A stretch of DNA of 64,000 bases, taken from the IMG/VR virus record IMGVR_UViG_3300044971_004534. One strand, 5' to 3'. Positions 4,987 to 63,600 of this stretch are shown in pieces. The number at the start of each line of letters is the position of its first letter. The stretch's first letter is position 1. Source of the stretch: a virus. The notes beneath the pieces were generated by a model, which did no database searches, was not told where the DNA came from, and was given only the letters and a program-made list of their open reading frames with translations. The position numbers and the translations under genes are program-made.

Positions 4987-4987
4987 T

Positions 4988-7889: not shown

Positions 7890-7893
7890 GTAC

Positions 7894-11369: not shown

Positions 11370-11372
11370 GCT

Positions 11373-21822: not shown

Positions 21823-22631
21823 GTGCGTCTCATGCAGGCTCTTTAAAAAGGGCTATTATGCTTACGGAATTAGCGGCATATAATGGTGCCGATGTTGTTA
21901 AGTTTCAAAAAAGAAATCCTTACAAGTCTGTACCTAATGATATAGCTAACAAGCCTCATCCAAATCCTCATTTTGCATATGGTGACACGTATCTAGAGCA
22001 CAGACTAAATTTAGAGTTAGACATACAAGATCATGAAGTTTTAAAACAACGTTGTGATGAATTGGGGGTTGAGTACGGATGTAGCGTTTGGGATATGGAC
22101 AGTGCCGAAGAAATAATAGACATAAAGCCTGGCTTACTAAAGATACCAAGTGCTTGTAACATGCATTTTAATTTAATTGAATATTGCTTGTCAAATTTTG
22201 ACGGCATGTTGCACATAAGCTTGGGTATGATGAATCAGGATGACAGAAATATTTTATTTACAAAATTTAAGTCAAAAAATGTAATATTTTATCATACCAC
22301 TACTGAATATCCATGTCCATTTGAAAGACTATATTTAAAAGAAATATCTAATATTTATAATTTATTTGGTCAGGTAGGGTTTAGTAATCACGGATATGGA
22401 ATATCTGCTGACATTGCAGCTCTTGCATTAGGGGCTACATTCATTGAAAGACATTTTATAGATGATAGAACTTTTAGACATACAGATGCTGCTGCTAGTC
22501 TTGAGCCAAACGGTCTTAAAACATTAAAAAGAGATATTAGACATGTTGGACGAGCGTTAAAATTTATGAATAATGAATGTACTGACGAGGAAAAAAGTCA
22601 ATCTCTTAAGCTAAGGAATTCTTTTAAATGA
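21786..22631 (+). CDS. neuB: NeuB-family nonulosonic acid (9-phosphate?) synthase, catalytic barrel only
   Basis: Motifs: VAEIGASHAGSLKRAIMLTELAAYNGADVVKFQKR, LKIPSACN, HISLGMM, YHTTTEYPCPFERL, GFSNHGYGISADIAALALGATFIERHF. At 281 aa it lacks the C-terminal SAF domain. Confidence 0.8.
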   Translation: MEERHCKLVAEIGASHAGSLKRAIMLTELAAYNGADVVKFQKRNPYKSVPNDIANKPHPNPHFAYGDTYLEHRLNLELDIQDHEVLKQRCDELGVEYGCSVWDMDSAEEIIDIKPGLLKIPSACNMHFNLIEYCLSNFDGMLHISLGMMNQDDRNILFTKFKSKNVIFYHTTTEYPCPFERLYLKEISNIYNLFGQVGFSNHGYGISADIAALALGATFIERHFIDDRTFRHTDAAASLEPNGLKTLKRDIRHVGRALKFMNNECTDEEKSQSLKLRNSFK

Positions 22632-23104
22632 TAATTTTTTCAGACGTTGATGGTGTTTTGACTGATGGAATGTATTATCATAACGAAGAGGGTATGATAG
22701 GCAAGGGATTTTCTACTAGAGATTTTCATGCAATTAACGCATTTGTAAAAAATGGTTTTAATTTTGTTTTTTTAACTGCAGCAACAGATATTGCTACAAT
22801 AAAAAAAATTAAAAACAATAAATTAAAACTTATTGCAGGATGCAAAGACAAAAAAGAAGCTGTTATATCTACATGCATACAGCAGGGCTATTTGGCGTCT
22901 GATTGCATTTTCGTAGGAGATGGGCCTCAAGATATATGTGCTATGCAGGCTTGTGGTCAATGTTTTTGTCCGTATGATGCTTGTCATGCAGTACTTAGTG
23001 TTCCTGGTGTTAATAGGCTTGAATCTTGCGGAGGTAAGGGAGTCATAGACGAATTACTTTTTAAATTATTTAAAACAGAATATATGAGCATAATGATTAA
23101 ATGA
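22628..23104 (+). CDS. KdsC-type (C0) HAD phosphatase, putative nonulosonate-9-phosphate phosphatase
   Basis: HAD motif I FSDVDGVLTDG and motif IV FVGDGPQD. The 158-aa size is typical of KDO-8-P/KDN-9-P phosphatases. ATGA junctions on both sides. Confidence 0.75.
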   Translation: MIIFSDVDGVLTDGMYYHNEEGMIGKGFSTRDFHAINAFVKNGFNFVFLTAATDIATIKKIKNNKLKLIAGCKDKKEAVISTCIQQGYLASDCIFVGDGPQDICAMQACGQCFCPYDACHAVLSVPGVNRLESCGGKGVIDELLFKLFKTEYMSIMIK

Positions 23105-33955: not shown

Positions 33956-34171
33956 ATGCTATACAAAAATATAAAACACGCTTCTTCTTCTGATATAGAA
34001 ATAATTAATGAAATAAAAGATGTTAAGTTTGGTGACAGTCACAGTTACTTTTTAATAGCAAAAAAAGATAATTTGTTTATTGTGCAAAGTAAAGATGGCT
34101 ATAATCTAATTGTTGATAGTGGAATAGTAGATTTGCTAAAAGAAAAAGATTTACTCGGAGGTCTAAAATGA
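33956..34171 (+). CDS. hypothetical small protein
   Basis: 71-aa ORF with an ATGA junction downstream. Confidence 0.45.
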   Translation: MLYKNIKHASSSDIEIINEIKDVKFGDSHSYFLIAKKDNLFIVQSKDGYNLIVDSGIVDLLKEKDLLGGLK

Positions 34172-37222: not shown

Positions 37223-38115
37223 TAGAAGATATAATAAGCGCTTTTAATTCAAAGCGAGATATTTTTGTATCCCCAGAAGATGCTGCTTCTATAATGGAGG
37301 CAGTTAGCCTTTTTATTGATAATGAGCATATAAAGGACAATAGGGTGGCTCGTTTGCCAGAACGCCTTTCTCAGGGCGATTTAGTGGGAGAGTACGTGTA
37401 TGTCCCATTAACTATTTTGGACGTATCAGTATCTTTGGCCATAGATCAGAAATTGTCAGGTCAAACAGTAATGGGGTCAACTCTTTCTAAAATATCTTCT
37501 TTGTCCAATACGGATATGCTATTGTGCAAAATTAATAGAAAAGATTTAGTGCATAAGGACTTTGGTACTGTATGTCTTCTTAATAAGGGTATCCCTAATT
37601 TTAGGGCCCGCTGTGAAAGCATAGTGGTAATGAACGATCATCCACTAGAAGAAATTACTAGATTTACAAAAAGCAAAGAATTTAATGTAGAAATTCTTAT
37701 AATGCGTGATGAAGAAAAATGGAGATATCATAAGTTTACTTTTGCTGGTCAAAATGGTAATATTAATGTAGAAGAAAAAAATGTTATGTCTGCACTTAAA
37801 AAGTATGCGCACCAAGTCCAAGAAGATTTTGAGTCACTTTCTCATGACCCACTAAAGGTGGCGCAAGCTTTAATTTCTGTAGACGTAAACAAAGAGGGGT
37901 TAAGCGAATTACTTAGATATATTGCGGGTGGAAACAAAATAGTTCATGTGGGCTCTAAGGTTGTAGCAAAGCCTACTAATTTGATGAAAAGCAAGTCTGT
38001 AGGTACAGTTGTAGGTAAATCAGCTAATGTTATTAACGTTAAATGGGATGCTGGTTTTATGAAATACAACTTAGATGATCCAAAAACATATTTTTTAATA
38101 GAGTTTGTTGACTAA
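37219..38115 (+). CDS. hypothetical protein, translationally coupled to the giant-gene block
   Basis: 298-aa ORF with an ATGA junction upstream and a TAATG junction to the 1946-aa gene. Confidence 0.55.
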   Translation: MIEDIISAFNSKRDIFVSPEDAASIMEAVSLFIDNEHIKDNRVARLPERLSQGDLVGEYVYVPLTILDVSVSLAIDQKLSGQTVMGSTLSKISSLSNTDMLLCKINRKDLVHKDFGTVCLLNKGIPNFRARCESIVVMNDHPLEEITRFTKSKEFNVEILIMRDEEKWRYHKFTFAGQNGNINVEEKNVMSALKKYAHQVQEDFESLSHDPLKVAQALISVDVNKEGLSELLRYIAGGNKIVHVGSKVVAKPTNLMKSKSVGTVVGKSANVINVKWDAGFMKYNLDDPKTYFLIEFVD

Positions 38116-49900: not shown

Positions 49901-52900
49901 GTTGCGCCAACAGATACTATGTACATGGTAGATTTGTTTTGGGACTATGATCCTAATGCAACTACTCCAAGTCCTGAAGATTTAAAGACAGCCATATTTA
50001 ATAGTTCTTTCAATAGTACACAAGATATTTATTCTAATTTGCTTTTGCCAGTAAAGGTGTCTGGAAATTTATCCCAATCTCAAGTGAACTTATTTCCATT
50101 AAGGGCTTATCCTCTTAATAGAAATCAAATTAATTTTTCTTCATGTGGTACAACTTGTCCAGCTATTTTGGTGTTCGGAATAGCAGTTAGCGGTTATCCA
50201 GCTACGCAATTTCCTCCCGTAATTGAGCCAACTACTACTTCGCCCTATACTGATACAAGATCTGCACATTTTGGATATTCTTCCAATAATGTTCAGTGCG
50301 CAAACGGAATTTCTGTAAAATATGATAGACAATATACAAATATTGTAGCTTGTAAAACTTTTACAGATGGATTTGGTGTAACTATTGGTGGTGTTGCTGC
50401 AGAGGCTGGAACTCATCTTGCTTCAACAATAACTAGTATTGGTACTAATTGGTGTGGAACTGGAGGAAATACTTCTACTAATGTCGCAACTTATTCATAT
50501 AAATATAAAACTATTCTTTATCCATCTATAACTTCTATAGATTCTCACACTCCTTCTTCTGGATTTAACACCCACAGTACTTATTTTACCGGTGGTGGTC
50601 CATCCCTTTTGCAATGGCATTCTCACTTTGCTCCATCATTCATCGAAACAAATATTGGCAATGGTCCTTTGTCTTTTGGTGCGATTAATGAATTTGCTCC
50701 CTACTACGATGACTTTGCTAATAGTACTACAGGATGGAATACTCCACGTAGTGGTCACAATATTATGTTCTGGGTAAGGCATAAATACAATGCTTCAACT
50801 GTTGCAACTCTCTCGGATGTTTTTCCTGCAAAAATTAATGACTTAGTTGGTAGTTTTTCAGGAAGCATTTATCCTAAATTAAGAAAAGAGTCTGCATTTA
50901 AATACCCATACAAAACAAATATGCTTACCGGGCGCGGCAGGAATGTTCAAATTTCAGCATTGGGTTCAGAACTTCGAAGTATAGGAAGAGACGAGATTGT
51001 TTATCAAAATGAATTTATTTACAGAAAATTATCCTATCATAGGCAAAACAGTTCAGGCACAGTTGTTAACAGTCAATTTTCTCCAGTGCATGAATTCAAC
51101 TCTGTAGAGATTAATTCTTCAGGAACATATACAAATAATCAATCTTTTGTAAATGATATAAGCAGTATTGTCCCTCTCTTGTATTCAGCTAGGTCTATTT
51201 TAGAAAATGATCCTCTCAAGCCGCATATAAGAGAAGAGTATCAGACAGAAACAGTATCAAATGTAAGGTATCGTAGAGCATCTTTGTTTGACAGAGTTAC
51301 ACCTCAAGACTTCTTTACTAATCCAGAAACGCTTGTATGTCTTCCAACATTCAGTATGCCTGACATGCTTGACTTTGCTACCAGTGACAATTCATTTAGT
51401 CATATCTTTGGTATATTGAATAATTTTGCAGACTCTTACGGACCCAATTATCCAGATAGTGCAAATTTAAAGTACATAGGAATGCTCAAAAACACCTTAA
51501 GTACAAACGATAAGAACAATCTAGGTTATAGCTCAAGTTCCCCAACTGCTTCTGCTTTCTGGAAGGCAATAAAAAACGGATTAGCTCACATTATAGATGT
51601 TAATTCTTCTGTAATGTCTCTCAGTAATGGAGAGGACCTATTAACTGTTACCATTTTAGCGTCTTTGAATGGCAATGTATGGACTGGAAGCAATCCAATT
51701 AAACATAGTTTTGGTTGGCAAAATTCTATTTTATCAGAAGAAATATATGGTGGTGGATTAATTTGTGCTGTCATAACGGCTAAAGTAACTAATAATGGTG
51801 GAATTGCTAACGTAAGATCTACATTTGCAAATTCTGCTGCGACCTTATCTAGTTCTAGTGTGAAGGCCAGGGTAAGTGCTGTTCTTGATGGAAATACAGT
51901 TCCAGAAAAGTCATGGTGCAGAATGGGTATTTGGATGCAGCCATTGTTAGGAACAGCTAAGCCTACAAAAGATAACTCTCCATACTACTGGCCAGGAAAT
52001 TTCCCATGGAGTGGGTCAAGCGACATAAAATATCTTGGCATAAATCCAGGAGATCAAGCGGTTAGTCAGACAAAGTTTTTCCATACATCTCCTGGGATGA
52101 TAAAAGTTCCTATTAATAGGTCTTATCTTGCAAAATTAGGCAAACATATTATGTTAAAATATAATACTGGTTCTGAGCAAGATAGATATTTTGCCATCAT
52201 TGGGCCATGTGTATATCATATACAGGATGCATTATCTCTAGACAATGGCCCGCTGTGGTGGGCTAATGAAAGAAAGTCTTCATGTTTTAAAATGCCAAGT
52301 TATTCTTGGGACAGTAGACCTGTCGTGTTCCAAAAATTTGGACTTTCTGTTGCAGAAATCTCGAGTGCATCATCTTATTCTGATTTATTTAAATTCTCTG
52401 CTTATACTGGCCAAGTCCCAAGAATGGTAAAGTCTTTCTTTAACCTTGAATCTTTTACGTCGGATTTTGGAGCAAATAACACTGCCGAGTTTGCGGCCTA
52501 TGGTAGTGTGGGTGGTGGCGCTGGCTCTTTGTTTGCTCCTAATGAGCAATGGTTTGACTACGGCAGTGAAACTTATGGGTTTGCTCCTAGTGGTGCAAAC
52601 GATGCTGTTGCCATACTTGGTGAAGGTATAGGTTTTAATATAAGAGAAGGGAATAAGATTCATGCATTTGTATTCTGGAGAAATGCATTTTATAGAATTA
52701 CTCCTCCTCTAAGTTCTGCTACAGAGTCTCATCCTGTAATAACAGAAATACCAATCAATACAACATATGTTCAAAATGGTGAAACAATAATTATTAAAGA
52801 TCAACTTAAAGCTGCTTATGAACTTCATAGATTAAATGGATTCTTCAATGGAAATACGTCTTTTGTGGTTAGCGGAAATGCTGGCAATGATAACGATAAT

Positions 52901-55747
52901 GCATTTACCTATGTGTTTAAATTCGTATCTAATGGAACGACCGCCAACGGCTTTAGTGGTCCTGGCATGGTTTACGAGGCAAGAGTCGGTGATATAGGTG
53001 CAACTGCAATAAACGATTTGTGCAATCAGGCTTTCAGGTATCAATTATGGATGAGTAGTGATGCAAGTATTTTGGCAATAGGCAATCATAGATGGGACGC
53101 TCAATCTGATCAAATAAGTCCAAACGGCGATCCACTACCTTCGACATTCTATATAGATCTTTATAGAAGAAACGTAACTGGGTCTGGCATTTCATACGTT
53201 AAGCTTTTAGAGCAAGGGTTAAAGCCATCTGATTCTAGTGAAGGTAGGCCGGTCGATGTGTTCTGCTCTTCATTGTGGGGAGTTCAAAGCAGTACAAACG
53301 CTTCTCTCTATGACATATATGTCGCATCTGGAATAGACCCAGATGTTAATGACGCCAATTACTTGGCTCCTACATCTGCTAATTATAGTGCCAGTAACTT
53401 TGAAAACAGAATAGGAAGGGTGACTGTATTTACTGCATCTGTCCCAACCGGAGGACAAGCAAGTAGAAGATCTATTGAGTTAAGCGACATTGTTCCTGCA
53501 ACAGATCCAGCATTCAATGATAACAATAAAGCTTTTGCAAATCTTAATTTCTGGACAATGACTCCAATAAGTGCAAAAAACGGAAGCTGTGGATTGATGT
53601 TCCATCAAAATACTTTAATCGCTTCTTCTCTTGGCTGCCTGATTAAAATGTCTCCCAAGTCTCCCTATCACGGATCTGGATGGCAAATTAGTAAAATTGT
53701 TGGAGCCAATTCTCCTATGCCTTCTATTCCAGTAAAAAGGGCAATTACTCCATATTCTCAATTTGGTTATGTAAATAATAATCCAAATGGTAATTTTGAA
53801 TACGCAATAAATGCAGATATTATGAACATGTCAACTATTGCGGTGCCAACAATTAATTCTTCTGCATCTGCTGGATTTAATAAGCTAGCATCAAAAATAG
53901 CGTTTATAGAGATCGATGTAGACAACAATCCTTATTCAAAGATATTCTCTATATCTAATTATACGTCGATTGTGTCTGGATCTTCTGCAGATGTTGATCA
54001 GTTAGGAGTATTCGATGCAAGTACTGAGCTAAGCAACCCAGTGTGTTATCCTGCCTACACCGCCATAAAGTCTAAGAGAAGCGGCTATTCGGCAGGTCAG
54101 TCTTCTCCAGAAACGCAGATTTACAACCCCAGCATAAAAGCATGGCTGTATGCATATGATTTAGGCAATTCTCTGGGAGATTCGGAATTGCCATACAGCT
54201 CATATGAGTATTCAAAAGATAACGAAGGTCATATACTCGTTAAGCCTCCTGTGCCCGATCTAGAGAAAAAGCAGTTTTATTTTGGTGGTAATGAATTCCT
54301 GACCCTTGATGGAAATAATGTCTATAGAGACTATCATGGACTTATTGGGAATATCAAGGGAACTCTTTTGCAAATGGATTGGCAAGATGTTTCTGGTATA
54401 TTGTGGTGGGGCACTAATGACATATACATCATGAGATCTTACAAATATGATCAGCATTATTCGCCTTCAGCATCAGATATTCTTCTTGAAGAATATGTAC
54501 GCTCAAGAACTTATTATGCAGATGAAAACACGGGTATCACAAGTGTTAATAAAAATGCAATTGTTAAATTTGCTATGCCAAGCAATGCTAATACTATAGT
54601 GCAAAACCCAACTTGTGATGTTAATGATTATATGGGAACTTTAGGATGCGGCTTGACTGGACCAAAAGTCATTACGGTCGCAGCATCCACCAACTATGGT
54701 CTTTACGATGTCCTGCATAATGGAATAACTTCAATAATTCCACTTATGCAGTCAAGAGAAAAATTCGGAAAGCAAAAAACAGTAATTATATTAGATGACT
54801 TCCCTGATCACATGAACAGCCAAATATTTACAGATATTGGTACAAATTATGCAAATATTATGCCGTTCTATAGTTACTCTTCATCGAATACAGTCAATCC
54901 ATACAGGGTATATGCTGAAGATATGTTTATTGACAGCTCTATGCGTTTAATATATAGAAAATCGGACCTCTTGCCATCTATATCAAAGTATCAAAATGGT
55001 TTCTCAATTCCCAATATTAGCGTTAATAACTGTGAGGGACCAATAGTGTTTGCAAGAAAGTCAATATATAGTTCTGCCAATACTAAGTGGAGCTACATGA
55101 TCAAAGACTTGTCTTCTTGCTTTGATCCTCTGTATGGAACAATTTATAATGGCGACAATATTTTACTTACTAGACTTTCTTACATGTATCCCAATTCAGT
55201 TTCGTCTTCTCATCCAGAGGCAGATTGGTATTTTGCTCCAATATCTGAAACTGTGTCAAATGCAGATGTTCCGACATATACTCCATCTATGAGTAAATGC
55301 CTGTGTGTGGGCCTACTTAGAGCTTCTAGTAGAAAGATAGCAAAATGGAAATTAAATTCTTCTTCTGGAGGAAGTTCACTCAGCCTACTTGATATTATAA
55401 CTGTTCAGACTGGAGATCAATCACCAGCCAGAATAAGAACAAGAATAGATACTTCCTCTAGTGGAGCATCAACGATAAAAGACCTTGTATTGTGTGGAAA
55501 AATAAATACTGATATTATAAATGCAGCTCTTAGCAAGTCTGGAGCAACAGATATTCCAAATTTAATGACAAAAATAAAAGACAATTTATATTCAGTAATT
55601 GGCGGTCAAAGCTTTATGGACGCCAACGGATGCATTCATATAGTCGATACAGATTCAGAGGCAAAAATAGATAATACAAAAGAAGAATTTATAAGAGAAT
55701 TTATGAATAAATTTAATGGATTTTATCATGTCATACGAGGCGCATAA
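43952..55747 (+). CDS. giant protein 2 (3931 aa) with poly-Ser linker and FG-GAP-like beta-propeller
   Basis: Uninterrupted 11.8-kb ORF. Ser-rich linker at about 44.62-44.71 kb. Several FG-GAP/integrin-alpha-like blades, for example FGYDISSFGWNGVTYLAVSAP...GRGAVYIF and YFGYDIDADENHIVISSP...GGSVRIFEF. Confidence 0.85.
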   Translation: MIKIRKIIYWHFAVYGGDAETIDPENLPSDSISTLDMGLNEANPIIVNGAPNVRAFSVSTGYEWLIDIFVQDGQTKDLNDENKRTTIRSNNPVASPGFVWFDLAVVELKAVFGNPIVVESLEQLSLVKDDNNDGVRIPVKYMLFGAHKEGETGAQLRNEPDAFFDATNIPNEVSSEGDQGHQEFVEAISSKTFVDEDGVPNSFFINIKHQEEVTKIGCCNIDVSESSSSSSSADSSSSSSEDGASSSSSSSSTDTGSESCPSGLTLRSQPVMHDGNRRVWAVRQTADIHISNNPVYEGNFFADSGVLVRKNYIASELVYADVENVLNGNSSWNSTHWQHAGYISFRENKPYAMGLHQDPVFNKTDLSYSSGNLCAYHAYDDNFELPVTIQSITWDTRGYLWALCSGGAKDATPDSGTTVSGVQSTEGVYALIPGGWKKQPADIIYFGGSNTGNTFEYEDLNSSALVLASLHMRWGCDRSKSKDFLAIVDNDFHIHIKKNANSNINFPEEQNIRNDNGLLLLADNIYAGVEKICVVEAGTTLPYLISYSQLDTDLSSLIATERANNVRYSILACGVDFIVGVSQSSQIKVFVNSSATNVPTQDDADELQSSISTDITDGYSIKKVVCGDSFFAVYLKKTSGESKLYARGYIKDIKIWDGSNYDANFIRPQSWDLSETKPILDVEAFGDYLIIAYAEGLPSASPKSLYYEVATVLDDIPLHNTGSASSAATSKILNYEVLNQLRKIYIDNASNDVDSYITSSNINHLLPSKGLLGYRKFENVNSAYGNLFIHENSEYLHHPYFSQSGSFIPGKMEVKSGMFGYDISSFGWNGVTYLAVSAPTEGPVLSAQNGGVLGQQDGKHGRGAVYIFKRYENGFKLIQKIQHSDTSVIAFGKQVCLYATKNASDEDAMALICSYRGNTSDYTRIYYWNSVEELFEWSEMTDSFIQVNQLTLSPSTSDIKIIEIKRISDHNISVTSFVNNAIEGYVQFINLRENIANMDTCKGVYVKLTSFNSLSFGPRFGASAVKESSASGWTVAIGYTTYNSALQTSLRLNFLNFPLEDAIEIKMQDPVSPLIAQGNGAVMLLYLSEDMQSFESDVSGPIFNVIEGTGFNSNATTKPYFGYDIDADENHIVISSPYDSGYSASGESSNILEGGSVRIFEFNNPISLGSRDVNVNSEFKFNLNNLSQYHLPRQVYNLGAGTYSAQWTKKKLGKSVKLVGNKVLVSSCDDDLRRGPSTQSNLFGNVFLLDKNSKGSWDIVSSSHEAHNGDRFGHKIEILPLNILSNGKDFIALVSSPGMVTSAVQLEDCLTCNPADTDYSYGSGVVKSIVVSGDKSFGVLPSRIPSVLQNIDSDNTSTYTLSSSALGIKHVAHDISNGPLNSRYVWKYYPARLLERSAIQSGVNDNEIPKFRLAKFINDPSPTGETDFASTYSDVGAFSMISDTGGGTAGDITVANLPIYDRANLNIRVMEMHPRPYRIVDASMSSSLDEASTSVSLPKQIRSDYFDFATPAKNELQETIYLYGPILSPQQGAQWSGSISPSNSFGITPVRASRWLIPVADSDVSNILYINGIAVWSPTVSNVEYNIAGGYYFNSSSFLRPSGQQVHTNMTGNPLVKPFNGTVDTSRWWSTRNYISPGCVQLLDSSTEGHLTVWPAFNFARTFTSSGNPNPPPFGGAIQGFLDTKNFYIGKADIRPGVTSVDASRIDACKIDKAYFWGLKIAEGSYNVFINAYLNATSVNPFRIHQTTKYLAWSGCTVALERSSPAASQLEYGTSYTGYAPSYESYDFNLGHILSYPPINFRCTTGNVAPKNSTVVNNVSTISAISNAPNGSTHALYLDAVGWNSSLMNVGVKDIVIHGHYNYHGFNKSASESLPVAAIADRRSQIVTFISGYGSKISSINGRNSGSCFFAPSIKFTCILDSGLSSYRRWKQNFGGLTDWNHNGGAYSGWGKIAKNPTFFANSFTNNPSWVTESGLPNGFNARVAPTDTMYMVDLFWDYDPNATTPSPEDLKTAIFNSSFNSTQDIYSNLLLPVKVSGNLSQSQVNLFPLRAYPLNRNQINFSSCGTTCPAILVFGIAVSGYPATQFPPVIEPTTTSPYTDTRSAHFGYSSNNVQCANGISVKYDRQYTNIVACKTFTDGFGVTIGGVAAEAGTHLASTITSIGTNWCGTGGNTSTNVATYSYKYKTILYPSITSIDSHTPSSGFNTHSTYFTGGGPSLLQWHSHFAPSFIETNIGNGPLSFGAINEFAPYYDDFANSTTGWNTPRSGHNIMFWVRHKYNASTVATLSDVFPAKINDLVGSFSGSIYPKLRKESAFKYPYKTNMLTGRGRNVQISALGSELRSIGRDEIVYQNEFIYRKLSYHRQNSSGTVVNSQFSPVHEFNSVEINSSGTYTNNQSFVNDISSIVPLLYSARSILENDPLKPHIREEYQTETVSNVRYRRASLFDRVTPQDFFTNPETLVCLPTFSMPDMLDFATSDNSFSHIFGILNNFADSYGPNYPDSANLKYIGMLKNTLSTNDKNNLGYSSSSPTASAFWKAIKNGLAHIIDVNSSVMSLSNGEDLLTVTILASLNGNVWTGSNPIKHSFGWQNSILSEEIYGGGLICAVITAKVTNNGGIANVRSTFANSAATLSSSSVKARVSAVLDGNTVPEKSWCRMGIWMQPLLGTAKPTKDNSPYYWPGNFPWSGSSDIKYLGINPGDQAVSQTKFFHTSPGMIKVPINRSYLAKLGKHIMLKYNTGSEQDRYFAIIGPCVYHIQDALSLDNGPLWWANERKSSCFKMPSYSWDSRPVVFQKFGLSVAEISSASSYSDLFKFSAYTGQVPRMVKSFFNLESFTSDFGANNTAEFAAYGSVGGGAGSLFAPNEQWFDYGSETYGFAPSGANDAVAILGEGIGFNIREGNKIHAFVFWRNAFYRITPPLSSATESHPVITEIPINTTYVQNGETIIIKDQLKAAYELHRLNGFFNGNTSFVVSGNAGNDNDNAFTYVFKFVSNGTTANGFSGPGMVYEARVGDIGATAINDLCNQAFRYQLWMSSDASILAIGNHRWDAQSDQISPNGDPLPSTFYIDLYRRNVTGSGISYVKLLEQGLKPSDSSEGRPVDVFCSSLWGVQSSTNASLYDIYVASGIDPDVNDANYLAPTSANYSASNFENRIGRVTVFTASVPTGGQASRRSIELSDIVPATDPAFNDNNKAFANLNFWTMTPISAKNGSCGLMFHQNTLIASSLGCLIKMSPKSPYHGSGWQISKIVGANSPMPSIPVKRAITPYSQFGYVNNNPNGNFEYAINADIMNMSTIAVPTINSSASAGFNKLASKIAFIEIDVDNNPYSKIFSISNYTSIVSGSSADVDQLGVFDASTELSNPVCYPAYTAIKSKRSGYSAGQSSPETQIYNPSIKAWLYAYDLGNSLGDSELPYSSYEYSKDNEGHILVKPPVPDLEKKQFYFGGNEFLTLDGNNVYRDYHGLIGNIKGTLLQMDWQDVSGILWWGTNDIYIMRSYKYDQHYSPSASDILLEEYVRSRTYYADENTGITSVNKNAIVKFAMPSNANTIVQNPTCDVNDYMGTLGCGLTGPKVITVAASTNYGLYDVLHNGITSIIPLMQSREKFGKQKTVIILDDFPDHMNSQIFTDIGTNYANIMPFYSYSSSNTVNPYRVYAEDMFIDSSMRLIYRKSDLLPSISKYQNGFSIPNISVNNCEGPIVFARKSIYSSANTKWSYMIKDLSSCFDPLYGTIYNGDNILLTRLSYMYPNSVSSSHPEADWYFAPISETVSNADVPTYTPSMSKCLCVGLLRASSRKIAKWKLNSSSGGSSLSLLDIITVQTGDQSPARIRTRIDTSSSGASTIKDLVLCGKINTDIINAALSKSGATDIPNLMTKIKDNLYSVIGGQSFMDANGCIHIVDTDSEAKIDNTKEEFIREFMNKFNGFYHVIRGA
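46380..47860 (+). other. FG-GAP (integrin-alpha-like) beta-propeller region within giant protein 2
   Basis: About 6 consecutive repeats of the form [F/L]G-x5-10-hydrophobic strand-(S/G)AP/SSP ... G-x-V-[YFR]-[IL]-F. Confidence 0.6.
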
Positions 55748-58700
55748 TGATTAGGAACCCATTTGAAACCACGCAATATGCGTCTAATTTCTTAAAAGAA
55801 AACATTATACTTGATTCTTCTGGAATAGGACTGACAGGTATAGATGTTTTAATGGAATTTCTTGTTAATCAAACAAGAATACGTCAAGAAGCTATAAGAA
55901 TAGGCTATATATCCAACAATCCATCTAGAATAGATGGAGAAGATTATAGCCAAGTAAGTTTGCTTGGCTTGTCTTTTGATACCCCTCAAAATATATATGA
56001 TGGCTCTTTACTTATAGTGAGCGCAATAAAGCAGATGTTTTCTGGGCATCCATCTGAACTTTATGAAAAACTTGCTTATAGACCAACTATTATACAATAT
56101 CAAGATCCAGACGATGGAGTGTATGTTAGTAGAACTGGTGGATTTTTTCATAAAATTGTGGACCCTAGTTCTGATGTTGAGCAGCCAAATGATGACTATT
56201 TTGAATTCTTTGACGATCCAGAATTTGTTGATGGTCAATATCTTACAAGTGGAGACATAGACAGATTTAATAGTCCGCCATCTTTTACTGATCCTTCAAA
56301 TCCTTACGCTACATTAAATGAATATTTGAAAGATCAAGTTAAATGGGTTAACAGCACAATCGCTATATTAAATAAGTTAAAATATATCCATAAAAAATTA
56401 GTTTTTACTTATCCATTTGCTGGAATATCTTTTGGAAGTGGCTGCTCATTTGCAAAAAATATTAGTTCTACCACTACTCCAGATTCGAACGGAAAGCCTG
56501 TAGAAATTATACTTGACATGTCTGAGGTGGTAGCTTCTTGTGTTGACGGTACTGATTCCTATGGGTATCTTTGCATTAGGTGGCGTAGTGTCGGCAACGG
56601 TTCACGTTTTATTGTCATGCCCACCGTGGGTGCGACAGCTGCACAGACAGCGGCTCTTCGTCAGCCAATATGGGGCGCATTGACAGTTAACCCAGCTTCA
56701 GATCAGCCTTATGTTCATAGTAATTCTGGTAATCAAGGATATTTGAACAGTGCTAACTACATTTCTTATGCTTCTTCTGAAGGTATATTGAAGACTTGGG
56801 ACCCAGAAACTAATACTGTTTTCGATAGGCCAGTTTCTCCTATTCTGAGATCTGGTTGTCAAAATGCTCCGTGCTGTACAACAAACGATAATACCAATAA
56901 CATTCCATTTAGAGAAGGTGGCAATGACGTAAACTCTGATTTTGCATGTATAAATATTAATAATACTTTCTTCTCTACTGGAACTGGTTCTGACTGGGAT
57001 AATAAAATAAGAATAGTGATATTTTCTGGATGCCAGAGTGCTAGCTCCAATACTTCCTGGGAGCTTGAGCTTAATTGTCTTGGCTGCACAGATTGCAATG
57101 TGACTTTGACTGAATGCGGAGGCATTCCTTCATCAAGTTCAAGTTCTGAAGACATTAATTTTGGCATATTTATTCTAGATGATAGTAATAAAATAGGAAA
57201 AATAGATGTAATAACCGGCAATTTATCTGGTAGAATTCTTACTGTCAAAGATGATGCAGGCAATCCACTGGAAGATAATCTGCATGACATTGATTTTGAT
57301 ACTGACGGCAACCTGTATGGTCTTGCGCAATCTGGAATTTTATACGTTATCAGCAAGTCAACAGGTAAAGCAACAGTTGTGGGGAATACTGGACTAACAA
57401 ATACAAACGGTCTTGGATTTGGTCAAGACGGCAGACTTTACACTATAAATAATACAACTCTTTATTATTTAAACAAGCAAAATGCTGGTACGAATCAAGT
57501 GGGAAGTATTGGCTATACTGGAAGCGGTGATATATGTACTTCAAGATCTGGCCCCAATAGACTAATAGTTTCTGCAAAAAATGGAAATAATAATTTTATC
57601 CTTGAATTATCTGTTGGTGCAAATAGCGTAACATCTCAAGTAAAACTTAGTGGATCAAGAGTTGTTCCAAGAGTTTTTGGTTTAGCTAGACCACTTTCTC
57701 TTTCTGCAGGCCCACTTGCTGTTGCTGATCAGAAAATATATGTTTTTAATAGATTTGATACTTCAGATGCTTCTATGACTGTTGTTTCCGATTTTTCTCA
57801 GTCTGGTCTTTGCTGTGCGGTTGGCGCAGCTTACTGGAACGGAAATTTTGAAAATGACGAAGGTGGCGGTGGAGGCGGCAACTTTGATTTTCCACAGTGT
57901 GACAATATACCAGTATGGACTGTAGGTAGAGATAATGTTCTTAAGCAGGTTAATATTAAAAACGGGGACTCTCTTAAGTCTTATACACTGCAGGGTGCGA
58001 CATTTGATAGCTTCTATGGATGTCCAACCGATTTAGCGGTAAATGATTCTGGCGACATATATCTAATAGATAACTCTAATCTTTATAGAGTGCTACTGCC
58101 CTTTGTTGACGCTCCTGTGCAAGACGTTGCTACCGCTATTCTAATTGGACGTTTATTAGAAGGTAGTTCCGCAGTAGCTTTTGCCGGTTTAACGTTTGGC
58201 AAAGACGGGATCTTATATGGATGTATGGTTGAAGGGGTTACAAACCCTATTTCTACGATTCCAGCATATCCACTATTCAAAATAGATCCTCAAACTGCAG
58301 AATGCACTGCTGTTTGCACAGACATGGGTGTTGGTTGTCAGGGTGATGTTGCTCCATGGACCGACGCGAATGGTGTAAACTGGTTTTATTTAGTTGGCGC
58401 TAATGAGGATCATAACCAGATATACAGGTTTAGATATGGTGGAGAGGGAGACTGCGGTGAACTTGAGCTTATTTCAGACCCAGACACTTTCCAGTATGGA
58501 ACAGACGTTTTTAGCATTTCCAATGCTCGTGATAATAAAATTTATGTTATAGCTGGAACCCAGGTTCTTAAGATAGACCCGATCACTAATACCATTACGG
58601 AAACTGGAGTGAGTATTAGTGGATCTCATAGTCATGGTTCTGGTTGGCTTCCTAATGATGTGCTTGCAGACGGTTGCTCTGACAACTCCTCTAGCTCAAG

Positions 58701-61700
58701 TTCATCTGGTGAAAATTCATCTTCAAGCTCTTCTTCAAGTGAAGATATTGCGCCATGTCCTTGCGTGCCCCAGTCTTCAAGTAGTTCAAGTTCAAGTTCA
58801 AGTTCAAGCAGTGAGATTTCTTCATCCTCTTCTAGTTCAAGCTCCTCAAGTTCAAGTTCTTCTAGTGCTTCATGCCCAGATTGTGGAGATAGTCCGTCTA
58901 TTATTATAGACAGGGATGATTGGCTAAGTGGTATAGTTAATTGCCATAAAGTTGGATTTGATTCTGGATCAGTCATAAGGATAAAATGGTTTCAAGTTTG
59001 TTCTCTTTGCTGCACTTGTCCTACAGAAAGACAGTTCACAAGAGAATGTGAAATCGAAATAAGCATATTTGATATTGATTGTCAGAGTTGGTCTGCAATT
59101 TGGCAATATCTTATTAGTACAGGACAAGTAGAAGAAATTAGATGCAGCGTAGATGGTGGTTCTTGCAGATTTTATTATAGAGTAGATTTTGACAGAGATC
59201 CAGATTTGCCAAATATATTTTATTGGAGATTTACAGAAAACTTCCAAACATTTTTCCCAGATTATCCTGCCAATTGCGAATGTCCTCCATGTGATCCAGA
59301 TCCATCATGCTGTGACTCGTCTTGCTTTGGCTTAGGCACCATGATAAAAATGGCAGATGGTAGTGAGAAAAGAATTGAAGACATTAAGGAAGGTGATATT
59401 CTTTTAGCAGCTTATTTCAACGAGTTTGGAGTTGCCAGAAATCCTACTTTAGAGCAAATAAACAGTGGTTGGACTTTAAGCGACTCTAGATATATCAGGT
59501 TCGCTGAAACCAGAGTAAAGAGCATAAAGGTTGGATCTGAGCTTTCTATATATAAATTTTCTGATTCATTAAAGCTTACTTTTGAACATCCTGTATTTAT
59601 AATGGATGTAGACGGCACTTTAAAATTTAGAAGTGCTGTGTATATGCAAGATGGCGTTTATGGATATGACGTAAATCTTGAAATGATTCCGATGAGATAT
59701 TTTGAAGAAATAAATAGAAAATCAATCACTATTACTCTCACAACTGAACCTTTCCATTGCATATTTGCAGGAAATATATTAGTGCACACTGGTTCTTCAG
59801 GTAATTACACAAATACAGTTGGTTTTGGTGAAATAGGCATTAATATAAATACTGATATTTATACAGATCCAGTCTCTCCAGCCACATCTGTTATTGACGA
59901 TGGCTCTACTGGTTACAGTTTTATTTCAGACGGATTAGGCACAGTAAATCCAGGGACTGGTGGTCCAATTGACGACAGTGGAGTAATTGTAGACAGCCCT
60001 TATGTTTGTCAATTTGCTTGCAGATGTTTAAGCGGAAATTGCAGCACAGTTAGTTTCGTAAGTTCCTGGAAGCTTGGAACGCCTATACAGTTCTGCGCAG
60101 ATCCTACGGCGTGCTGTAATAATGGAAGTTGTACAAGAGGTAATGCAGACTGTAAAGACGTATCTGACAACTCCGTATTGATTGAAAGAACTATAGTCGC
60201 CAATAGTTGTGCTGATGCTTGTAGAAAATGTGCTGCTCTTGCTACGCAAAGTGTTGATTTTGTAAACAGCCCTTCTTTTGAATGCGCAAACGCTTCACTG
60301 ATATGTACATCATCGGGTTCATCTTCATCTTCCGTTTCTGCTTCGTCTTCAAGTAGTAGCTCCGAAATAACTGGTGAAGAGGTTGTTTTGTGGCTGAATC
60401 CTCCAATGGCTGCAGTTGACGTTGGCAATGGACTTATGTCAGTTTCTGGTGCTCCTACTGCTCATTTATTAAGTAACGGCAATGATGGGCAAATGTTGGC
60501 TCAAAGATTTGCTGTACCAGACAATTGTCAATGGCGTGTTTATAAATTTAGAATGTGGGGCGGTAGCGAATACGTGGACGAGCCTGTTGGTGGAGCGGGT
60601 GGCAACAGCTTGTCAAGTAATATACAAGCTATAAGAATAAACATCTTTAAGTTCCAGGCATCTTCTGGTAATTGGGAGTTGTATAATTCTACTACTGGTT
60701 ATTTAAAAATGGCTTCAGGTTTGATTTTAAATGATCAGGGAAGCACTATGGGCATATTTGGATCTAAGCATTTTCAAATTGACATGGAGTTTAATCCATC
60801 TGTTTCTACTATTTTGGACAGTGGGGATTATTTGCTTGGTATTGGTGGCGTGCATTCTTTGACTGGCCCTACCGCTCCAGAAAAACTTCTGTGGACATAT
60901 AGTGAGTTTGGGACTGCAACCAGCCCTGGGCAATACTCGACTACCAATTTAAACTGGGGAAATTGGGTTGATAGCAATCAGAACACAAGTTTAGCAGCTG
61001 CTCTCATAGGAATAAGAAGTTCAACATGCGTAGTGTCAAGCTCTTCAAGCTCTTCCGGCTTGGGATCTCAATCTTCTAGTTCTTCTTCTGATTTGTCGAG
61101 TTCATCTTCTAGTTCTTCCTCCGTAGGTGCTTGTACGCAATCTTTTGGTCATTGGAACAATAGCAGTGGAACTCCAGTATACTCTGAAATTATTGATTTA
61201 TCTGGATTTGAAGTACAAACCGATACATCTGGAGAGTTTATTGACGTGTGTGTTGAATATATGACTGGCTCAGATATTTCTGACAGAATTCTAATAATAG
61301 CAACAAAAGACGATGATGAGGTTAGTACTGATGAATTCTTAAGAAATGGGGATATAGACTATTCTTACTACGCAAATATTGATAATTACATAAATGGTCA
61401 GGAGAGTAGGTTCTCTATTTCCTCAGGACATCCATTAATCGCCTACAACGGCTCCTCTTTTGCGCCACCATTGCGATCATTGATATTTGATAGCGGTTGT
61501 GCTTTAACTGGAGACACAAATTCCACAGTTACTTCTATAAGGCTTAGAAAAAATTCTGTGTCATTAGACCCAACTGATCCAATGTATAAAAAGTTCCGAT
61601 TGGTTGTATTCGGAGTTTGTGATGTAGCTTTTGCTCCAAATAGTATTACAAATTGGTGGATTACATTTAAGTGTGATATTGCAAATTGCGTTGTAACTTC

Positions 61701-63600
61701 ATCAAGCAGTTCATCTTCGTCTTCTTCTAGTTCTGTTCTGTCTAGCTCTAGTTCATCCAGTAGCTCTTCAGTCTGCACTAAAATATGGTCTGGACCAGGA
61801 TGTCCAGATGTCAATAATGATGGATTTGTAGATTCTCTTGATCTTGGACTTTTAAATGGTATCTGGGGTGCTGTTGATTATGACAATAGAATATCCGTAG
61901 CGTCAGATTTAAATGGAGATGGCTTTATAGACGGGCAAGATATGATTATTCTATTAAGTAACGGTGGATGTATAGAATGTCCTAATTTTCAATGGCCCAT
62001 TTCTTCATCTAGTTCCAGTAGTTCCAGTAGTTCCAGTAGTTCCAGTAGTTCCAGTAGTTCCAGTTCTTCTATACCCTCCGGTCCTCCGCTGCCGTATTAT
62101 GGCTCAAACAAATTTGGTAGATTCATGGTAGATGCAAGAGATGGTAAAAACATAGTTGACATTATGTATATAGGACAAGATGCTAACTATTGGGTTCCTG
62201 CCTTAAATAGAGGTTTTAATTTACTTAATGTAAAAGCTTTTGGTACACCGTTTGCTCCCGCCTTGATGTCTACATCATTTGATGTTGTAAGTAATGTTGC
62301 TCATCTTTCTGCGGATTGGGATGCTGGATCAAATGCTAGATCAAGTGAAGTTGGCACTCTAAAAATTTTCAAAGGTGGTAGTCTTTTTGCCGGAGACGCG
62401 ATACATGAAGCCATGCATACATCTGTTACTCCATATGGAAAAGCTTTGGAGTGGGGGTATGTTCCAAAGATAGATGGTGAGTACTTCATAGAGTATGCTT
62501 CAGGAATGTATATATCAAATGGACCACCAAGCTTGGGCATCCCTATAGATAGCGTTTCAAAACTGGAGTACAGAGTTTTAAGAGTATCTGGTTATACAGG
62601 AAGTTACTCCATGTCTGTGGACACTTATGATGCAAGTAGAAATTATGCTGTATTGCCAGTAGTCAGTAATCAATCAAGTGACCTGATATGGGTAAGTGAC
62701 AGTTTGGAATTTATGTATAATCCATTAGTTCATGGAGTAGAAGGCTTGCGTTTTGCATGTACTGGAAGTGAAAATTTAGGACTCACTTCTGGAATAAGCG
62801 GAGACTTTGGAGTTGGATTGCATAGTTTGCACAAGAATGAAATAAGCGGTCTCGCGATTACTCCATTCCACACGTATGGTCAGGCAACATTTGAGTCATT
62901 AAATTCCGATCTTAATAGACCTGAAACCATTTTTACTTTAGAAACTTATCTAAACGCGATAAATGAAAGATCTGTGTCTGCTTACAGTAAGCTGCCAGGA
63001 GCAGAAGGCGGCTCAGGAAGAATGGTATTCTTCATACAAGCCAATTCGTCTTCTGAATCAACTATGATTAATGACATCATATCGATTAAAGATAAAATTA
63101 CTGCTACATGTTTAGGTTTAGGTTTTGATGAAAACAACTTTACATTCGCCATTATGATACCAGCTCCTATAAGTGAATTCGACTTAGAGTTTGTCAGTCT
63201 TCGTCAAAGCATTGCTGATGCAATACTTGCTCAAAGTAGCTCAATCGCAAATATATCTTTCATAAACATTCCAGCTATTTTCTCTTATACGCAAATGATA
63301 GAAAATGGCTGGGCAACAATTGCGATCACGCCAGTCGAAGAAAATCCAACAAGTCAATTTGCTTTACTGACAGGAGGACAGTGCTGTGAGACTTATACTA
63401 ATTGCTGCCCGAGCGTGCCAGTTTGCACAGGCGGTACTTGCACTTATGTAAGATGCTGGAATTGCTCAGAAGACGCTCCTGGCTTCGGCGTGTGCGGAGT
63501 GGTCATGTCAACAGATCCAGACACAGGAGGAAGTTCTTCAGATACATCTGGTGGAGGCAGTAGCAGCTCTTCTAGTAGTGAAAAAAATCCATTTATTTAA
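55747..63600 (+). CDS. giant protein 3 (2617 aa): beta-propellers, poly-Ser linkers, Hint domain, Cys-rich modules, dockerin, C-terminal domain
   Basis: Uninterrupted 7.9-kb ORF with a TAATG junction to giant protein 2. Domain evidence is listed separately. Confidence 0.85.
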   Translation: MIRNPFETTQYASNFLKENIILDSSGIGLTGIDVLMEFLVNQTRIRQEAIRIGYISNNPSRIDGEDYSQVSLLGLSFDTPQNIYDGSLLIVSAIKQMFSGHPSELYEKLAYRPTIIQYQDPDDGVYVSRTGGFFHKIVDPSSDVEQPNDDYFEFFDDPEFVDGQYLTSGDIDRFNSPPSFTDPSNPYATLNEYLKDQVKWVNSTIAILNKLKYIHKKLVFTYPFAGISFGSGCSFAKNISSTTTPDSNGKPVEIILDMSEVVASCVDGTDSYGYLCIRWRSVGNGSRFIVMPTVGATAAQTAALRQPIWGALTVNPASDQPYVHSNSGNQGYLNSANYISYASSEGILKTWDPETNTVFDRPVSPILRSGCQNAPCCTTNDNTNNIPFREGGNDVNSDFACININNTFFSTGTGSDWDNKIRIVIFSGCQSASSNTSWELELNCLGCTDCNVTLTECGGIPSSSSSSEDINFGIFILDDSNKIGKIDVITGNLSGRILTVKDDAGNPLEDNLHDIDFDTDGNLYGLAQSGILYVISKSTGKATVVGNTGLTNTNGLGFGQDGRLYTINNTTLYYLNKQNAGTNQVGSIGYTGSGDICTSRSGPNRLIVSAKNGNNNFILELSVGANSVTSQVKLSGSRVVPRVFGLARPLSLSAGPLAVADQKIYVFNRFDTSDASMTVVSDFSQSGLCCAVGAAYWNGNFENDEGGGGGGNFDFPQCDNIPVWTVGRDNVLKQVNIKNGDSLKSYTLQGATFDSFYGCPTDLAVNDSGDIYLIDNSNLYRVLLPFVDAPVQDVATAILIGRLLEGSSAVAFAGLTFGKDGILYGCMVEGVTNPISTIPAYPLFKIDPQTAECTAVCTDMGVGCQGDVAPWTDANGVNWFYLVGANEDHNQIYRFRYGGEGDCGELELISDPDTFQYGTDVFSISNARDNKIYVIAGTQVLKIDPITNTITETGVSISGSHSHGSGWLPNDVLADGCSDNSSSSSSSGENSSSSSSSSEDIAPCPCVPQSSSSSSSSSSSSSEISSSSSSSSSSSSSSSSASCPDCGDSPSIIIDRDDWLSGIVNCHKVGFDSGSVIRIKWFQVCSLCCTCPTERQFTRECEIEISIFDIDCQSWSAIWQYLISTGQVEEIRCSVDGGSCRFYYRVDFDRDPDLPNIFYWRFTENFQTFFPDYPANCECPPCDPDPSCCDSSCFGLGTMIKMADGSEKRIEDIKEGDILLAAYFNEFGVARNPTLEQINSGWTLSDSRYIRFAETRVKSIKVGSELSIYKFSDSLKLTFEHPVFIMDVDGTLKFRSAVYMQDGVYGYDVNLEMIPMRYFEEINRKSITITLTTEPFHCIFAGNILVHTGSSGNYTNTVGFGEIGININTDIYTDPVSPATSVIDDGSTGYSFISDGLGTVNPGTGGPIDDSGVIVDSPYVCQFACRCLSGNCSTVSFVSSWKLGTPIQFCADPTACCNNGSCTRGNADCKDVSDNSVLIERTIVANSCADACRKCAALATQSVDFVNSPSFECANASLICTSSGSSSSSVSASSSSSSSEITGEEVVLWLNPPMAAVDVGNGLMSVSGAPTAHLLSNGNDGQMLAQRFAVPDNCQWRVYKFRMWGGSEYVDEPVGGAGGNSLSSNIQAIRINIFKFQASSGNWELYNSTTGYLKMASGLILNDQGSTMGIFGSKHFQIDMEFNPSVSTILDSGDYLLGIGGVHSLTGPTAPEKLLWTYSEFGTATSPGQYSTTNLNWGNWVDSNQNTSLAAALIGIRSSTCVVSSSSSSSGLGSQSSSSSSDLSSSSSSSSSVGACTQSFGHWNNSSGTPVYSEIIDLSGFEVQTDTSGEFIDVCVEYMTGSDISDRILIIATKDDDEVSTDEFLRNGDIDYSYYANIDNYINGQESRFSISSGHPLIAYNGSSFAPPLRSLIFDSGCALTGDTNSTVTSIRLRKNSVSLDPTDPMYKKFRLVVFGVCDVAFAPNSITNWWITFKCDIANCVVTSSSSSSSSSSSSVLSSSSSSSSSSVCTKIWSGPGCPDVNNDGFVDSLDLGLLNGIWGAVDYDNRISVASDLNGDGFIDGQDMIILLSNGGCIECPNFQWPISSSSSSSSSSSSSSSSSSSSSSSIPSGPPLPYYGSNKFGRFMVDARDGKNIVDIMYIGQDANYWVPALNRGFNLLNVKAFGTPFAPALMSTSFDVVSNVAHLSADWDAGSNARSSEVGTLKIFKGGSLFAGDAIHEAMHTSVTPYGKALEWGYVPKIDGEYFIEYASGMYISNGPPSLGIPIDSVSKLEYRVLRVSGYTGSYSMSVDTYDASRNYAVLPVVSNQSSDLIWVSDSLEFMYNPLVHGVEGLRFACTGSENLGLTSGISGDFGVGLHSLHKNEISGLAITPFHTYGQATFESLNSDLNRPETIFTLETYLNAINERSVSAYSKLPGAEGGSGRMVFFIQANSSSESTMINDIISIKDKITATCLGLGFDENNFTFAIMIPAPISEFDLEFVSLRQSIADAILAQSSSIANISFINIPAIFSYTQMIENGWATIAITPVEENPTSQFALLTGGQCCETYTNCCPSVPVCTGGTCTYVRCWNCSEDAPGFGVCGVVMSTDPDTGGSSSDTSGGGSSSSSSSEKNPFI
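57150..58650 (+). other. two NHL/YVTN-like beta-propeller regions in giant protein 3
   Basis: Repeated blades such as DIDFDTDGNLYGLAQSGILYVISKSTGK, GLGFGQDGRLYTINNTTLYYLN, DLAVNDSGDIYLIDNSNLYRV, GLTFGKDGILYGC and NKIYVIAGTQVLKIDPITN. They are separated by a Gly run (EGGGGGGN). Confidence 0.55.
58783..58806 (+). repeat. (AGTTCA)x4 hexanucleotide tandem repeat inside a poly-Ser tract
   Basis: Perfect agttca agttca agttca agttca within the 58.68-58.87 kb Ser-coding region. Confidence 0.85.
59323..59790 (+). other. Hint (Hedgehog/intein-like, BIL-type) domain within giant protein 3
   Basis: Block A: CFGLGTMIKMADGSEKRIEDIKEGDILL. Block B TxxH: LKLTFEHPVF. Blocks F/G: FHCIFAGNILVHT. The domain ends HT followed by Gly, not the HN+Cys/Ser/Thr expected of splicing inteins. 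Confidence 0.75.
61801..61970 (+). other. dockerin (type I-like) module in giant protein 3
   Basis: Two 22-residue Ca-binding loop-helix segments, DVNNDGFVDSLDLGLLNGIWGA and DLNGDGFIDGQDMIILLSNGG, separated by a 10-residue linker. Poly-Ser linkers flank both sides. Confidence 0.75.
62011..62064 (+). repeat. perfect (AGTTCCAGT)x6 tandem repeat encoding poly-Ser
   Basis: Six identical 9-nt units counted directly in the sequence. The repeat is in frame. Confidence 0.95.

Follow-up and report, generated by a model that had tools for sequence, protein, structure and literature searches.

Dockerins have been studied almost solely as connectors of cellulosomes. In the type I dockerins of C. thermocellum the cohesin-contact residues are Ser-Thr at positions 10-11 and Lys-Arg at positions 17-18. 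Cohesin and dockerin domains are also found in a range of bacteria and archaea not believed to be cellulolytic, with archaeal cohesin-dockerin pairs having been verified, and the presence of these domains alone does not reveal their role (PMC9012536). Dockerin-bearing giant proteins of the Omnitrophota contain up to 15 copies (bioRxiv 10.64898/2026.06.07.730766), whilst among viruses dockerin-like genes are mentioned in Vibrio phage VvAW1 (PMC3558961), a putative virus contig of anaerobic methanotrophic (ANME) archaea has dockerin domains (PMC13452462), and BFVD holds viral proteins with a dockerin fold, one of them annotated 'Dockerin type 1 [Myoviridae sp. ctagO6]', UniProt too listing a Myoviridae 'Dockerin type 1' protein. 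Here we describe a dockerin module encoded on a 64,000-nucleotide stretch of viral DNA, IMG/VR record IMGVR_UViG_3300044971_004534 (hereafter the window), where three giant open reading frames (ORFs) follow one another and the last of them (55747..63600, + strand, 2,617 amino acids, aa) contains the module in frame 1.

A sequence-only reading of the window had proposed a duplicated Ca-binding loop-helix of the 'canonical type I' dockerin kind, isolated by Ser linkers on both sides, within a giant phage protein. The duplicated dockerin and the linkers were borne out: both peptides quoted in that reading read exactly from frame 1 of ORF 55747..63600, and Ser-rich linkers flank the module on either side (Table 1). 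The module is internal (aa 2021-2074 of 2,617) and comprises a Ca loop-helix segment of about 22 residues, present as a tandem pair with the loop preceding the helix in each copy. The regular expression D.[ND].[DN]G..[DNE]..[DE] gave exactly two matches across all six frames of the window, both of them the dockerin segments, lying in the same frame 33 codons apart, which is the canonical spacing. In the hidden Markov model (HMM) check that the sequence-only reading had called for, Pfam Dockerin_1 (PF00404) scored 26.4 bits (E 8e-6) with the whole protein and 31.5 bits (E 2e-7) with an 87-aa excerpt, on both queries exceeding the gathering score of 22.9 bits. The EF-hand models PF00036, PF13405 and PF13499 scored 17.5-19.6 bits with cutoffs of 25-30, placing the module outside those families, and the matches of FG-GAP models to the giant protein were likewise below threshold. 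Loop positions 1, 3, 5, 9 and 12 read D-N-D-D-D in both segments, and all ten canonical Ca-ligand positions are occupied; in an alignment of 121 sequences positions 1 and 12 of each loop are invariant, and at the six remaining ligand positions the window module has the majority residue of its 121 relatives (in segment 1, N3, D5 and D9). The sole clear deviation is at the helix end of segment 2, where the window module has Gly and 110 of 120 relatives have Trp. A phmmer search of the PDB ranked the dockerins 2y3n_B, 6kg9_A, 4fl4_A and 1ohz_B first, with modest E-values (0.002-0.05) and both repeats aligned gap-free.

Structure prediction agreed with this assignment. AlphaFold2 reached a mean predicted local distance difference test score (pLDDT) of 48 from the single sequence and of 84.6, with a predicted template modelling (TM) score (pTM) of 0.72, from the 121-sequence alignment, the model containing three helices at residues 22-30, 40-45 and 55-63 of the excerpt. 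When this model was compared with the PDB using Foldseek, all 12 of the 12 best matches were dockerins and EF-hand proteins ranked far lower; the E-values were weak (at least 0.02) owing to the small size of the domain. The best match was 2y3n_B, with a root mean square deviation of 1.2 Å over 57 columns, a TM score of 0.77 on the target and a probability of 1.00, and the third best was 2ozn_B, the non-cellulosomal dockerin of C. perfringens NagH from the NagH/NagJ complex. Because of the HMM score, the uniqueness of the motif, the model, the fold matches and the conservation of the ligands, the two-loop observation stands as confirmed and lies far beyond chance. On the evidence of sequence and model the module is a genuine member of the dockerin family with a three-helix dockerin fold, and we regard its sequence, family membership and predicted fold as established.

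The closest dockerins in sequence were short modules of the form 'CP.D.N.DG.VD..DL..LL..WG.C', 40-50% identical over the module. A profile search retrieved 1,666 such short dockerin proteins, the few named ones being from Planctomycetota or Phycisphaerae and one of these carrying the name 'GC-type dockerin domain-anchored protein'. These closest relatives often have one Cys ahead of loop 1 and another behind helix 3. One 899-aa protein, P0012, is otherwise unrelated and has only the dockerin module in common with the giant protein (40% identity), the shared region including a four-Cys frame, C..W..GCPD ... C-[IH]-x-C-P-N-F-x-W-P. Since the module is the sole region common to the giant protein and the otherwise unrelated P0012 and P0105 (the latter from the P0012 cluster), it appears to be a mobile, self-contained unit. 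It belongs to a large non-cellulosomal 'LLxxWG..C' branch of dockerins, often found terminally on secreted proteins of Planctomycetota and recurring in phage baseplate and tail-fibre proteins. With the Planctomycetota and Phycisphaerae members of this branch (NCBIfam NF041540) it has the closest sequence class, the Cys pair and the LLxxWG helix ends in common, and a dockerin of this type is present in P0040 and P0005, which are distantly homologous to the C-terminal domain of the phage protein. The phage module differs in that its second helix ends in NGG rather than WG, in having the extra C-terminal C-x-x-C-P-N-F-x-W-P frame, in being internal rather than terminal and in lying in an AT-rich gene (about 38% GC). 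It also differs in lacking an NF041540 match, neither the module nor the whole protein matching that model (cutoff 29 bits) at E <= 0.1, whereas the control P0174 scored 36.7 bits.

Further searches for relatives were negative. A homologue search with the whole giant protein returned 8,000 candidates, none significant, probably having been swamped by poly-Ser words, and a search with the bare 77-aa module found no shared words. No relative of the dockerin plus C-terminal region was found in IMG/VR, tblastn of the module against 50,697 GenBank phage records gave no match at E <= 1, and two metagenome scans and one genome scan, which bore on the conservation of the dockerin in a lineage of 61% identity (P0002) and on the host, yielded pattern matches of which none was confirmed by tblastn.

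The 'canonical type I' label was not supported by comparison with the cellulosomal dockerins. At positions 10/11 and 17/18 segment 1 has S-L and N-G and segment 2 has G-Q and L-S, unlike the type I contact residues, the nearest sequences are non-cellulosomal, and the best structural match, 2y3n_B, is a B. cellulosolvens dockerin deposited as 'Type II cohesin-dockerin domain'; the Pfam name Dockerin_1 spans the whole dockerin family. Type I dockerins lie, usually C-terminally, on secreted carbohydrate-active enzymes (CAZymes), whereas here the module is internal, the protein has no CAZyme Pfam domain and its N-terminus shows, by eye, no signal-peptide-like hydrophobic segment. In common with the dockerins of B. 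cellulosolvens (2Y3N chain B), C. thermocellum Xyn10B (1OHZ chain B) and C. acetobutylicum (6KG9) are the duplicated 22-residue segments, the gap-free alignment, the three-helix predicted fold and PF00404 membership. Unlike them, the phage module is framed by four Cys residues and poly-Ser linkers, has no cohesin or scaffoldin detected nearby and is carried by a phage rather than by a cellulolytic bacterium. The giant proteins of the Omnitrophota ('Archaeovorin') and the ANME dockerin/cohesin proteins, compared here at the dockerin module only, are likewise very long, multi-modular, probably surface-exposed and carriers of PF00404 outside a cellulose context, although they are mostly cellular and have another mix of domains (TSP3 repeats, S-layer domains). 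The sequence-only reading had also held that the dockerin restricts the host to organisms with cohesin-bearing surface proteins. This does not follow, because cohesin and dockerin domains are widespread outside cellulose degradation (PMC9012536) and dockerin-bearing giants occur in the Omnitrophota too.

Dockerins were also found in other metagenomic phages, in several cases in proteins of recognisable structural context. P0105 is encoded on a 30-kb phage contig (L073) within a baseplate/tail-fibre cluster (1465-12700), preceded by a Gp6-like gene, a Baseplate_wedge gene and a 2,129-aa ORF and followed by an 814-aa ORF and a DUF4815 gene; the Baseplate_wedge ORF, two genes upstream of P0105, itself has a faint Dockerin_1 match. 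The only true homologue of the Cys-framed module, P0012/P0105, thus sits in the baseplate/tail-fibre cluster of another phage. In P0010 (2,148 aa) 16 copies of Dockerin_1 come after a baseplate-wedge domain at the N-terminus (phrog_17744, E 7e-52). Its gene takes the gp7 position of a T4-type baseplate cluster, flanked by gp6-like and gp8-like genes, on two independent contigs (L061/L062 10001-16447). Among the other proteins retrieved, P0003 and P0004 have six dockerin copies. P0010, P0105 and the Baseplate_wedge ORF are, like the window protein, large phage-encoded proteins with PF00404-type modules; they differ in that P0010 and P0105 lie in recognisable T4-like baseplate clusters whereas the window protein has no recognisable structural neighbours, and in that P0010 has 16 tandem copies and the window protein one. 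A strict DNA pattern (WG, gap, DxNGDGxxD) matched 58 IMG/VR contigs. About 17 of these encode a family of proteins of about 360 aa, in which the scanned representatives L005 and L003 have a C-terminal Dockerin_1 of 30-33 bits; the genes for terminase, Erf and Gam on L025, a contig with this family, mark it as a bona fide phage. A further 14 or so of the matches were set aside as lysozyme-like (by eye GH108-type), having a single EF-type loop rather than a dockerin. A further IMG/VR protein, of 1,394 aa (L033 3593-7774, IMGVR_UViG_2740892559_000001), combines leucine-rich repeats, a Cohesin domain (29.1 bits), Dockerin_1 (34.4 bits) and an FlgD Ig-like domain, and may be the product of a host gene adjoining a provirus. 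Given the baseplate, tail, BFVD and literature precedents, a dockerin in a phage is not new as such, and the window module is a new example of a known module from a family already known in phages. Together with the other baseplate and tail examples it shows that large phage proteins repeatedly make use of this unstudied module as a building block; there seems to have been no functional study of any phage dockerin so far.

The region following the module provides a second line of comparison. A phmmer search with aa 2012-2617 against 1.84 billion representatives gave 70 matches, of which a few cover the C-terminal domain and the rest the dockerin, many in multiple copies. The family of the C-terminal domain is accordingly small, with fewer than 10 clusters among those representatives, and its distant homologues are 21-28% identical. 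Two of these, with N-termini that look signal-peptide-like by eye, have a C-terminal Dockerin_1 of their own, which passes the cutoff in P0040 (27.9 bits) and reaches 17 bits in P0005. The domain order in both, C-terminal-domain family and then dockerin, is the reverse of that in the phage protein, and because the two modules travel together in opposite orders the dockerin would seem to serve the C-terminal domain as an anchoring or targeting device, this being the best available argument for such a role. As to the domain itself, an HEAMH motif was considered as that of a zinc protease and rejected, the motif being absent from P0005, P0006, P0025 and P0040. Assignment as an SGNH/GDSL hydrolase was likewise set aside: GDSN, GGxN and DxxH-like motifs occur in P0005 and P0040, the window copy lacks these residues, and neither Pfam nor the PDB supported the assignment, which is a weak idea only.

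How the module might work can be sketched from the predicted fold. Ca2+ would order both loops, and the N- and C-terminal flanks would pair and may be clamped by disulfides, a clamp proposed because P0012 keeps the four Cys and many relatives have a single Cys pair. Helices 1 and 3 would form a binding face, which would tether the giant protein, and especially the adjacent C-terminal domain, to a partner on the virion or on the host envelope that need not be a classical cohesin. We infer that the module binds Ca2+ and a partner and is exposed on the virion. The reading in which a beads-on-a-string, probably virion-exposed protein uses it as an autonomous, Ca2+-dependent means of attachment to a putative partner is the most likely one, and we give it an even chance of being right. 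The autonomy of the module is suggested by the poly-Ser linkers on both sides and by its exchange as a unit with P0012/P0105, and the idea of a virion attachment module in general draws indirect support, by analogy, from the dockerins of other phages. Several observations weigh against this reading. The first Ca loop of the P0012 module is degenerate, and since it has decayed there full Ca dependence is not universal for this type of module. At the second 'LLxxWG' helix end, in helix 3, the Trp that almost all relatives have is missing. In the 10 kb downstream of the window and the roughly 6 kb upstream of it no gene is recognisable as encoding a capsid or tail protein, and the giants have no PHROG or informative PDB matches that would place them in the virion. 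The L025 dockerin ORF is in a moron-like position outside the structural module. Moreover, the search of the phage genome for cohesins that the sequence-only reading had suggested gave no PF00963 match at E <= 0.01 in the three giants, in the rest of the window's ORFs from 100 aa upwards (joined into chunks for scanning) or in flanking ORFs lacking precomputed Pfam matches, and the precomputed Pfam lists of the other flanking genes contain no cohesin; this screen covered about 80 kb, or about 28%, of a genome of at least 281 kb. The absence is suggestive rather than conclusive, because Pfam is blind to a divergent cohesin-like sandwich in 'dark' giants.

The model in which the module is a type I, cellulosome-type dockerin that plugs into the cohesins of a host scaffoldin, used as a receptor or loading platform, or into a phage-encoded cohesin for fibre assembly, fits the dockerin family and fold and can point to cohesin-dockerin pairs outside cellulosomes, namely C. 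perfringens NagH/NagJ and the archaeal pairs (PMC9012536), as well as to the L033 protein with both domains. We nevertheless consider it improbable, given that no cohesin was detected in the screened part of the genome, all three giants included, that the closest relatives are non-cellulosomal Planctomycetota-type modules, that the contact positions depart from the type I motif with no CAZyme domain attached, and that a freshwater lake virome, to which the phage is linked below, is not a typical cellulosome habitat. A related and similarly doubtful proposal is that the phage has a plug and socket of its own, the Cys-framed dockerin docking onto a Pfam-invisible socket in a neighbouring giant or baseplate protein, as a modular appendage, or onto a cohesin-like protein of the host surface that acts as adsorption receptor; if true, a functional interaction like that of cohesin and dockerin would for the first time be seen in the assembly of a virus or in its recognition of a host. 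That the module is instead a structural element, a Ca2+-stabilised rigid bead or a calcium sensor which shapes or stabilises a linker-rich fibre and has no specific partner, seems unlikely but deserves weight. The tandem arrays of P0010 and P0003/P0004 look more like Ca-rigidified rods than like separate plugs, the Omnitrophota giants are comparable with their up to 15 copies (bioRxiv 10.64898/2026.06.07.730766), and the cohesin screen found no partner; here, however, the module is single, has 60 residues and hangs between two flexible linkers of some 23 residues each, so that it can neither be a rigid spacer nor rigidify the fibre, which argues for a binding module, and the exchange of the module as a unit and its occurrence with the C-terminal domain in both orders fit targeting or anchoring better.

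Whether the giant protein belongs to the virion at all bears on a further reading, in which it is released at lysis or acts in or on the infected cell, the dockerin fastening the C-terminal domain to the envelope or matrix of the host. An anchoring role of this kind is ascribed to the C-terminal dockerins of secreted bacterial proteins, as in the 'GC-type dockerin domain-anchored protein', P0005 and P0040 combine such dockerins with signal-peptide-like N-termini, the genes around the giant concern replication, sugar metabolism and regulation rather than structure, and L025 offers its moron-like example. We hold this to be very improbable, since the giant itself has no signal-peptide-like segment at its N-terminus and the only close homologue of the module sits in a baseplate/tail-fibre cluster. 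Mere coincidence, a pair of EF-hand-like DxNxDG loops with no domain, can draw on the many families with DxDxDG loops and on the sub-threshold EF-hand and FG-GAP matches, but is effectively refuted by the score above the Pfam gathering threshold, the canonical spacing of two loops that are the only such motifs in six frames, the confident model whose top fold matches are all dockerins, and a homologue that keeps the flanks. The attachment module that we favour could, if a partner exists, explain how giant phage appendages are assembled or hosts recognised and provide possible new orthogonal Ca-dependent connectors for protein engineering. At present the result stands as a domain annotation, of immediate use as a pointer for virion proteomics and binding screens.

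The giant protein around the module has a beads-on-a-string layout, with 80 Cys and 14 poly-Ser runs (Table 1). An extracellular character is favoured by the Cys content, the lectin-like propeller matches and the Ser linkers. The propeller-like region may be a lectin-type binding domain. The Hint-like module reads CFGLGTMIKMADGSEKRIEDIKEGD ... HPVF ... VHTGSS, and its matches are weak yet consistent (Pfam Hom_end_hint, Hint and Vint; in the PDB the bacterial intein-like domain 2lwy and Prp8 inteins); it may mediate autoprocessing of the giant protein into two halves. At 62010-62064 the 9-bp unit TAGTTCCAG is repeated perfectly in tandem 6.1 times; it encodes most of the downstream poly-Ser linker, whose length is probably variable.

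Table 1. Features of the 2,617-aa giant protein gene, with positions in the window.
Feature	Position	Strand	Basis or remark
Dockerin segment 1, DVNNDGFVDSLDLGLLNGIWGA	61807..61872	+	Ca loop D-V-N-N-D-G-F-V-D-S-L-D, then helix LGLLNGIWGA
Inter-segment linker VDYDNRISVAS, 11 residues	61873..61905	+	Predicted short middle helix
Dockerin segment 2, DLNGDGFIDGQDMIILLSNGG	61906..61968	+	Ca loop D-L-N-G-D-G-F-I-D-G-Q-D, then helix MIILLSNGG
Whole Cys-framed module, C-x8-C-P-D ... C-I-E-C-P-N-F-Q-W-P	61774..61998	+	Four-Cys frame common to P0012/P0105
Upstream Ser-rich linker, aa 1985-2008	61699..61770	+	Sequence
Downstream poly-Ser linker, aa 2086-2108	62002..62070	+	Sequence
Beta-propeller-like region	57154..58671	+	Tachylectin, NHL, DUF4394 and DUF5074 matches, all below cutoffs
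Hint/bacterial-intein-like module starting CFGLGTMIKMADG, aa ~1182-1368	59290..59850	+	Weak matches only; Cys at 59323
C-terminal domain (~480 aa) plus Cys-rich tail, function not assigned	62083..63534	+	Distant cellular homologues P0040, P0005

The three giants of the window measure 1,946, 3,931 and 2,617 aa (38115-55747 for the two preceding that with the dockerin), and a fourth of 3,937-3,994 aa lies upstream (L065 1-2047), which gives the phage at least four giant ORFs. Among the window giants Pfam domains occur only in the 2,617-aa protein, and the upstream giant has no precomputed Pfam match. Giants 1-3 gave neither a PHROG match nor an informative PDB sequence match, and BLASTP among them found no similarity and hence no support for paralogy.

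The exact giant protein was also found on a JGI contig of 161,456 bp (3300042945, Ga0453138_0000025), a 96%-identical giant protein with the dockerin intact on a 281-kb ENA scaffold (ERZ28616809), and the same C-terminal ORF on a 301-kb contig. The 281-kb scaffold has a 100-N assembly gap exactly at the downstream poly-Ser linker, and because of this gap a spurious 491-aa 'stand-alone' C-terminal ORF, P0001, is on record, which we discarded as an artefact. IMG 3300011113, which a Scientific Data paper gives as the virome taken from Lake Soyang in September 2015 (PMC7553992), has a contig carrying the identical IF3 gene with the gene order unchanged. From this contig and the scaffolds of 281-301 kb, the source is a freshwater jumbo phage of roughly 280-300 kb. 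The window is about 35% GC and contains no tRNA; the PHROG matches confirm that it is phage DNA and, in agreement with Pfam, include a DnaB-like helicase, a split DnaE-type polymerase, a UvsX-like recombinase, a clamp loader and several helicases. The polymerase has at most about 34% identity to anything in the 50,697 GenBank phage records.

Upstream of the giants and also upstream of the window lies a set of sugar genes (19518-24699 and 34168-35130, and L065 2070-4637) characteristic of the synthesis of nonulosonic (sialic-like) acids and the glycosylation of proteins. Among them are two MptE-like/DUF115 (Maf-like) ORFs, a CMP-sugar cytidylyltransferase, NeuB (174 bits), a GT1 and an epimerase/dehydratase, together with a 158-aa ORF (22628..23104) that is KdsC/HAD-like by eye only and has no Pfam match; GT2-GT1-GT2 genes adjoin the fourth giant ORF upstream. 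The poly-Ser linkers of the giants as O-glycosylation targets of this cluster is a speculative connection. Elsewhere in the window, IF3 lies at 3716-4210 (IF3_N, 81.9 bits), the identical protein being indexed in 65 blocks of a public collection, and a SpoVS-like ORF (53.6 bits) is located at 16322-16648 in the replication region. The DnaE-type DNA polymerase III alpha is encoded by two overlapping ORFs, 8126-9424 (PHP and N-terminal part) and 9417-11369 (finger and C-terminal part), and this split is kept in all related contigs seen.

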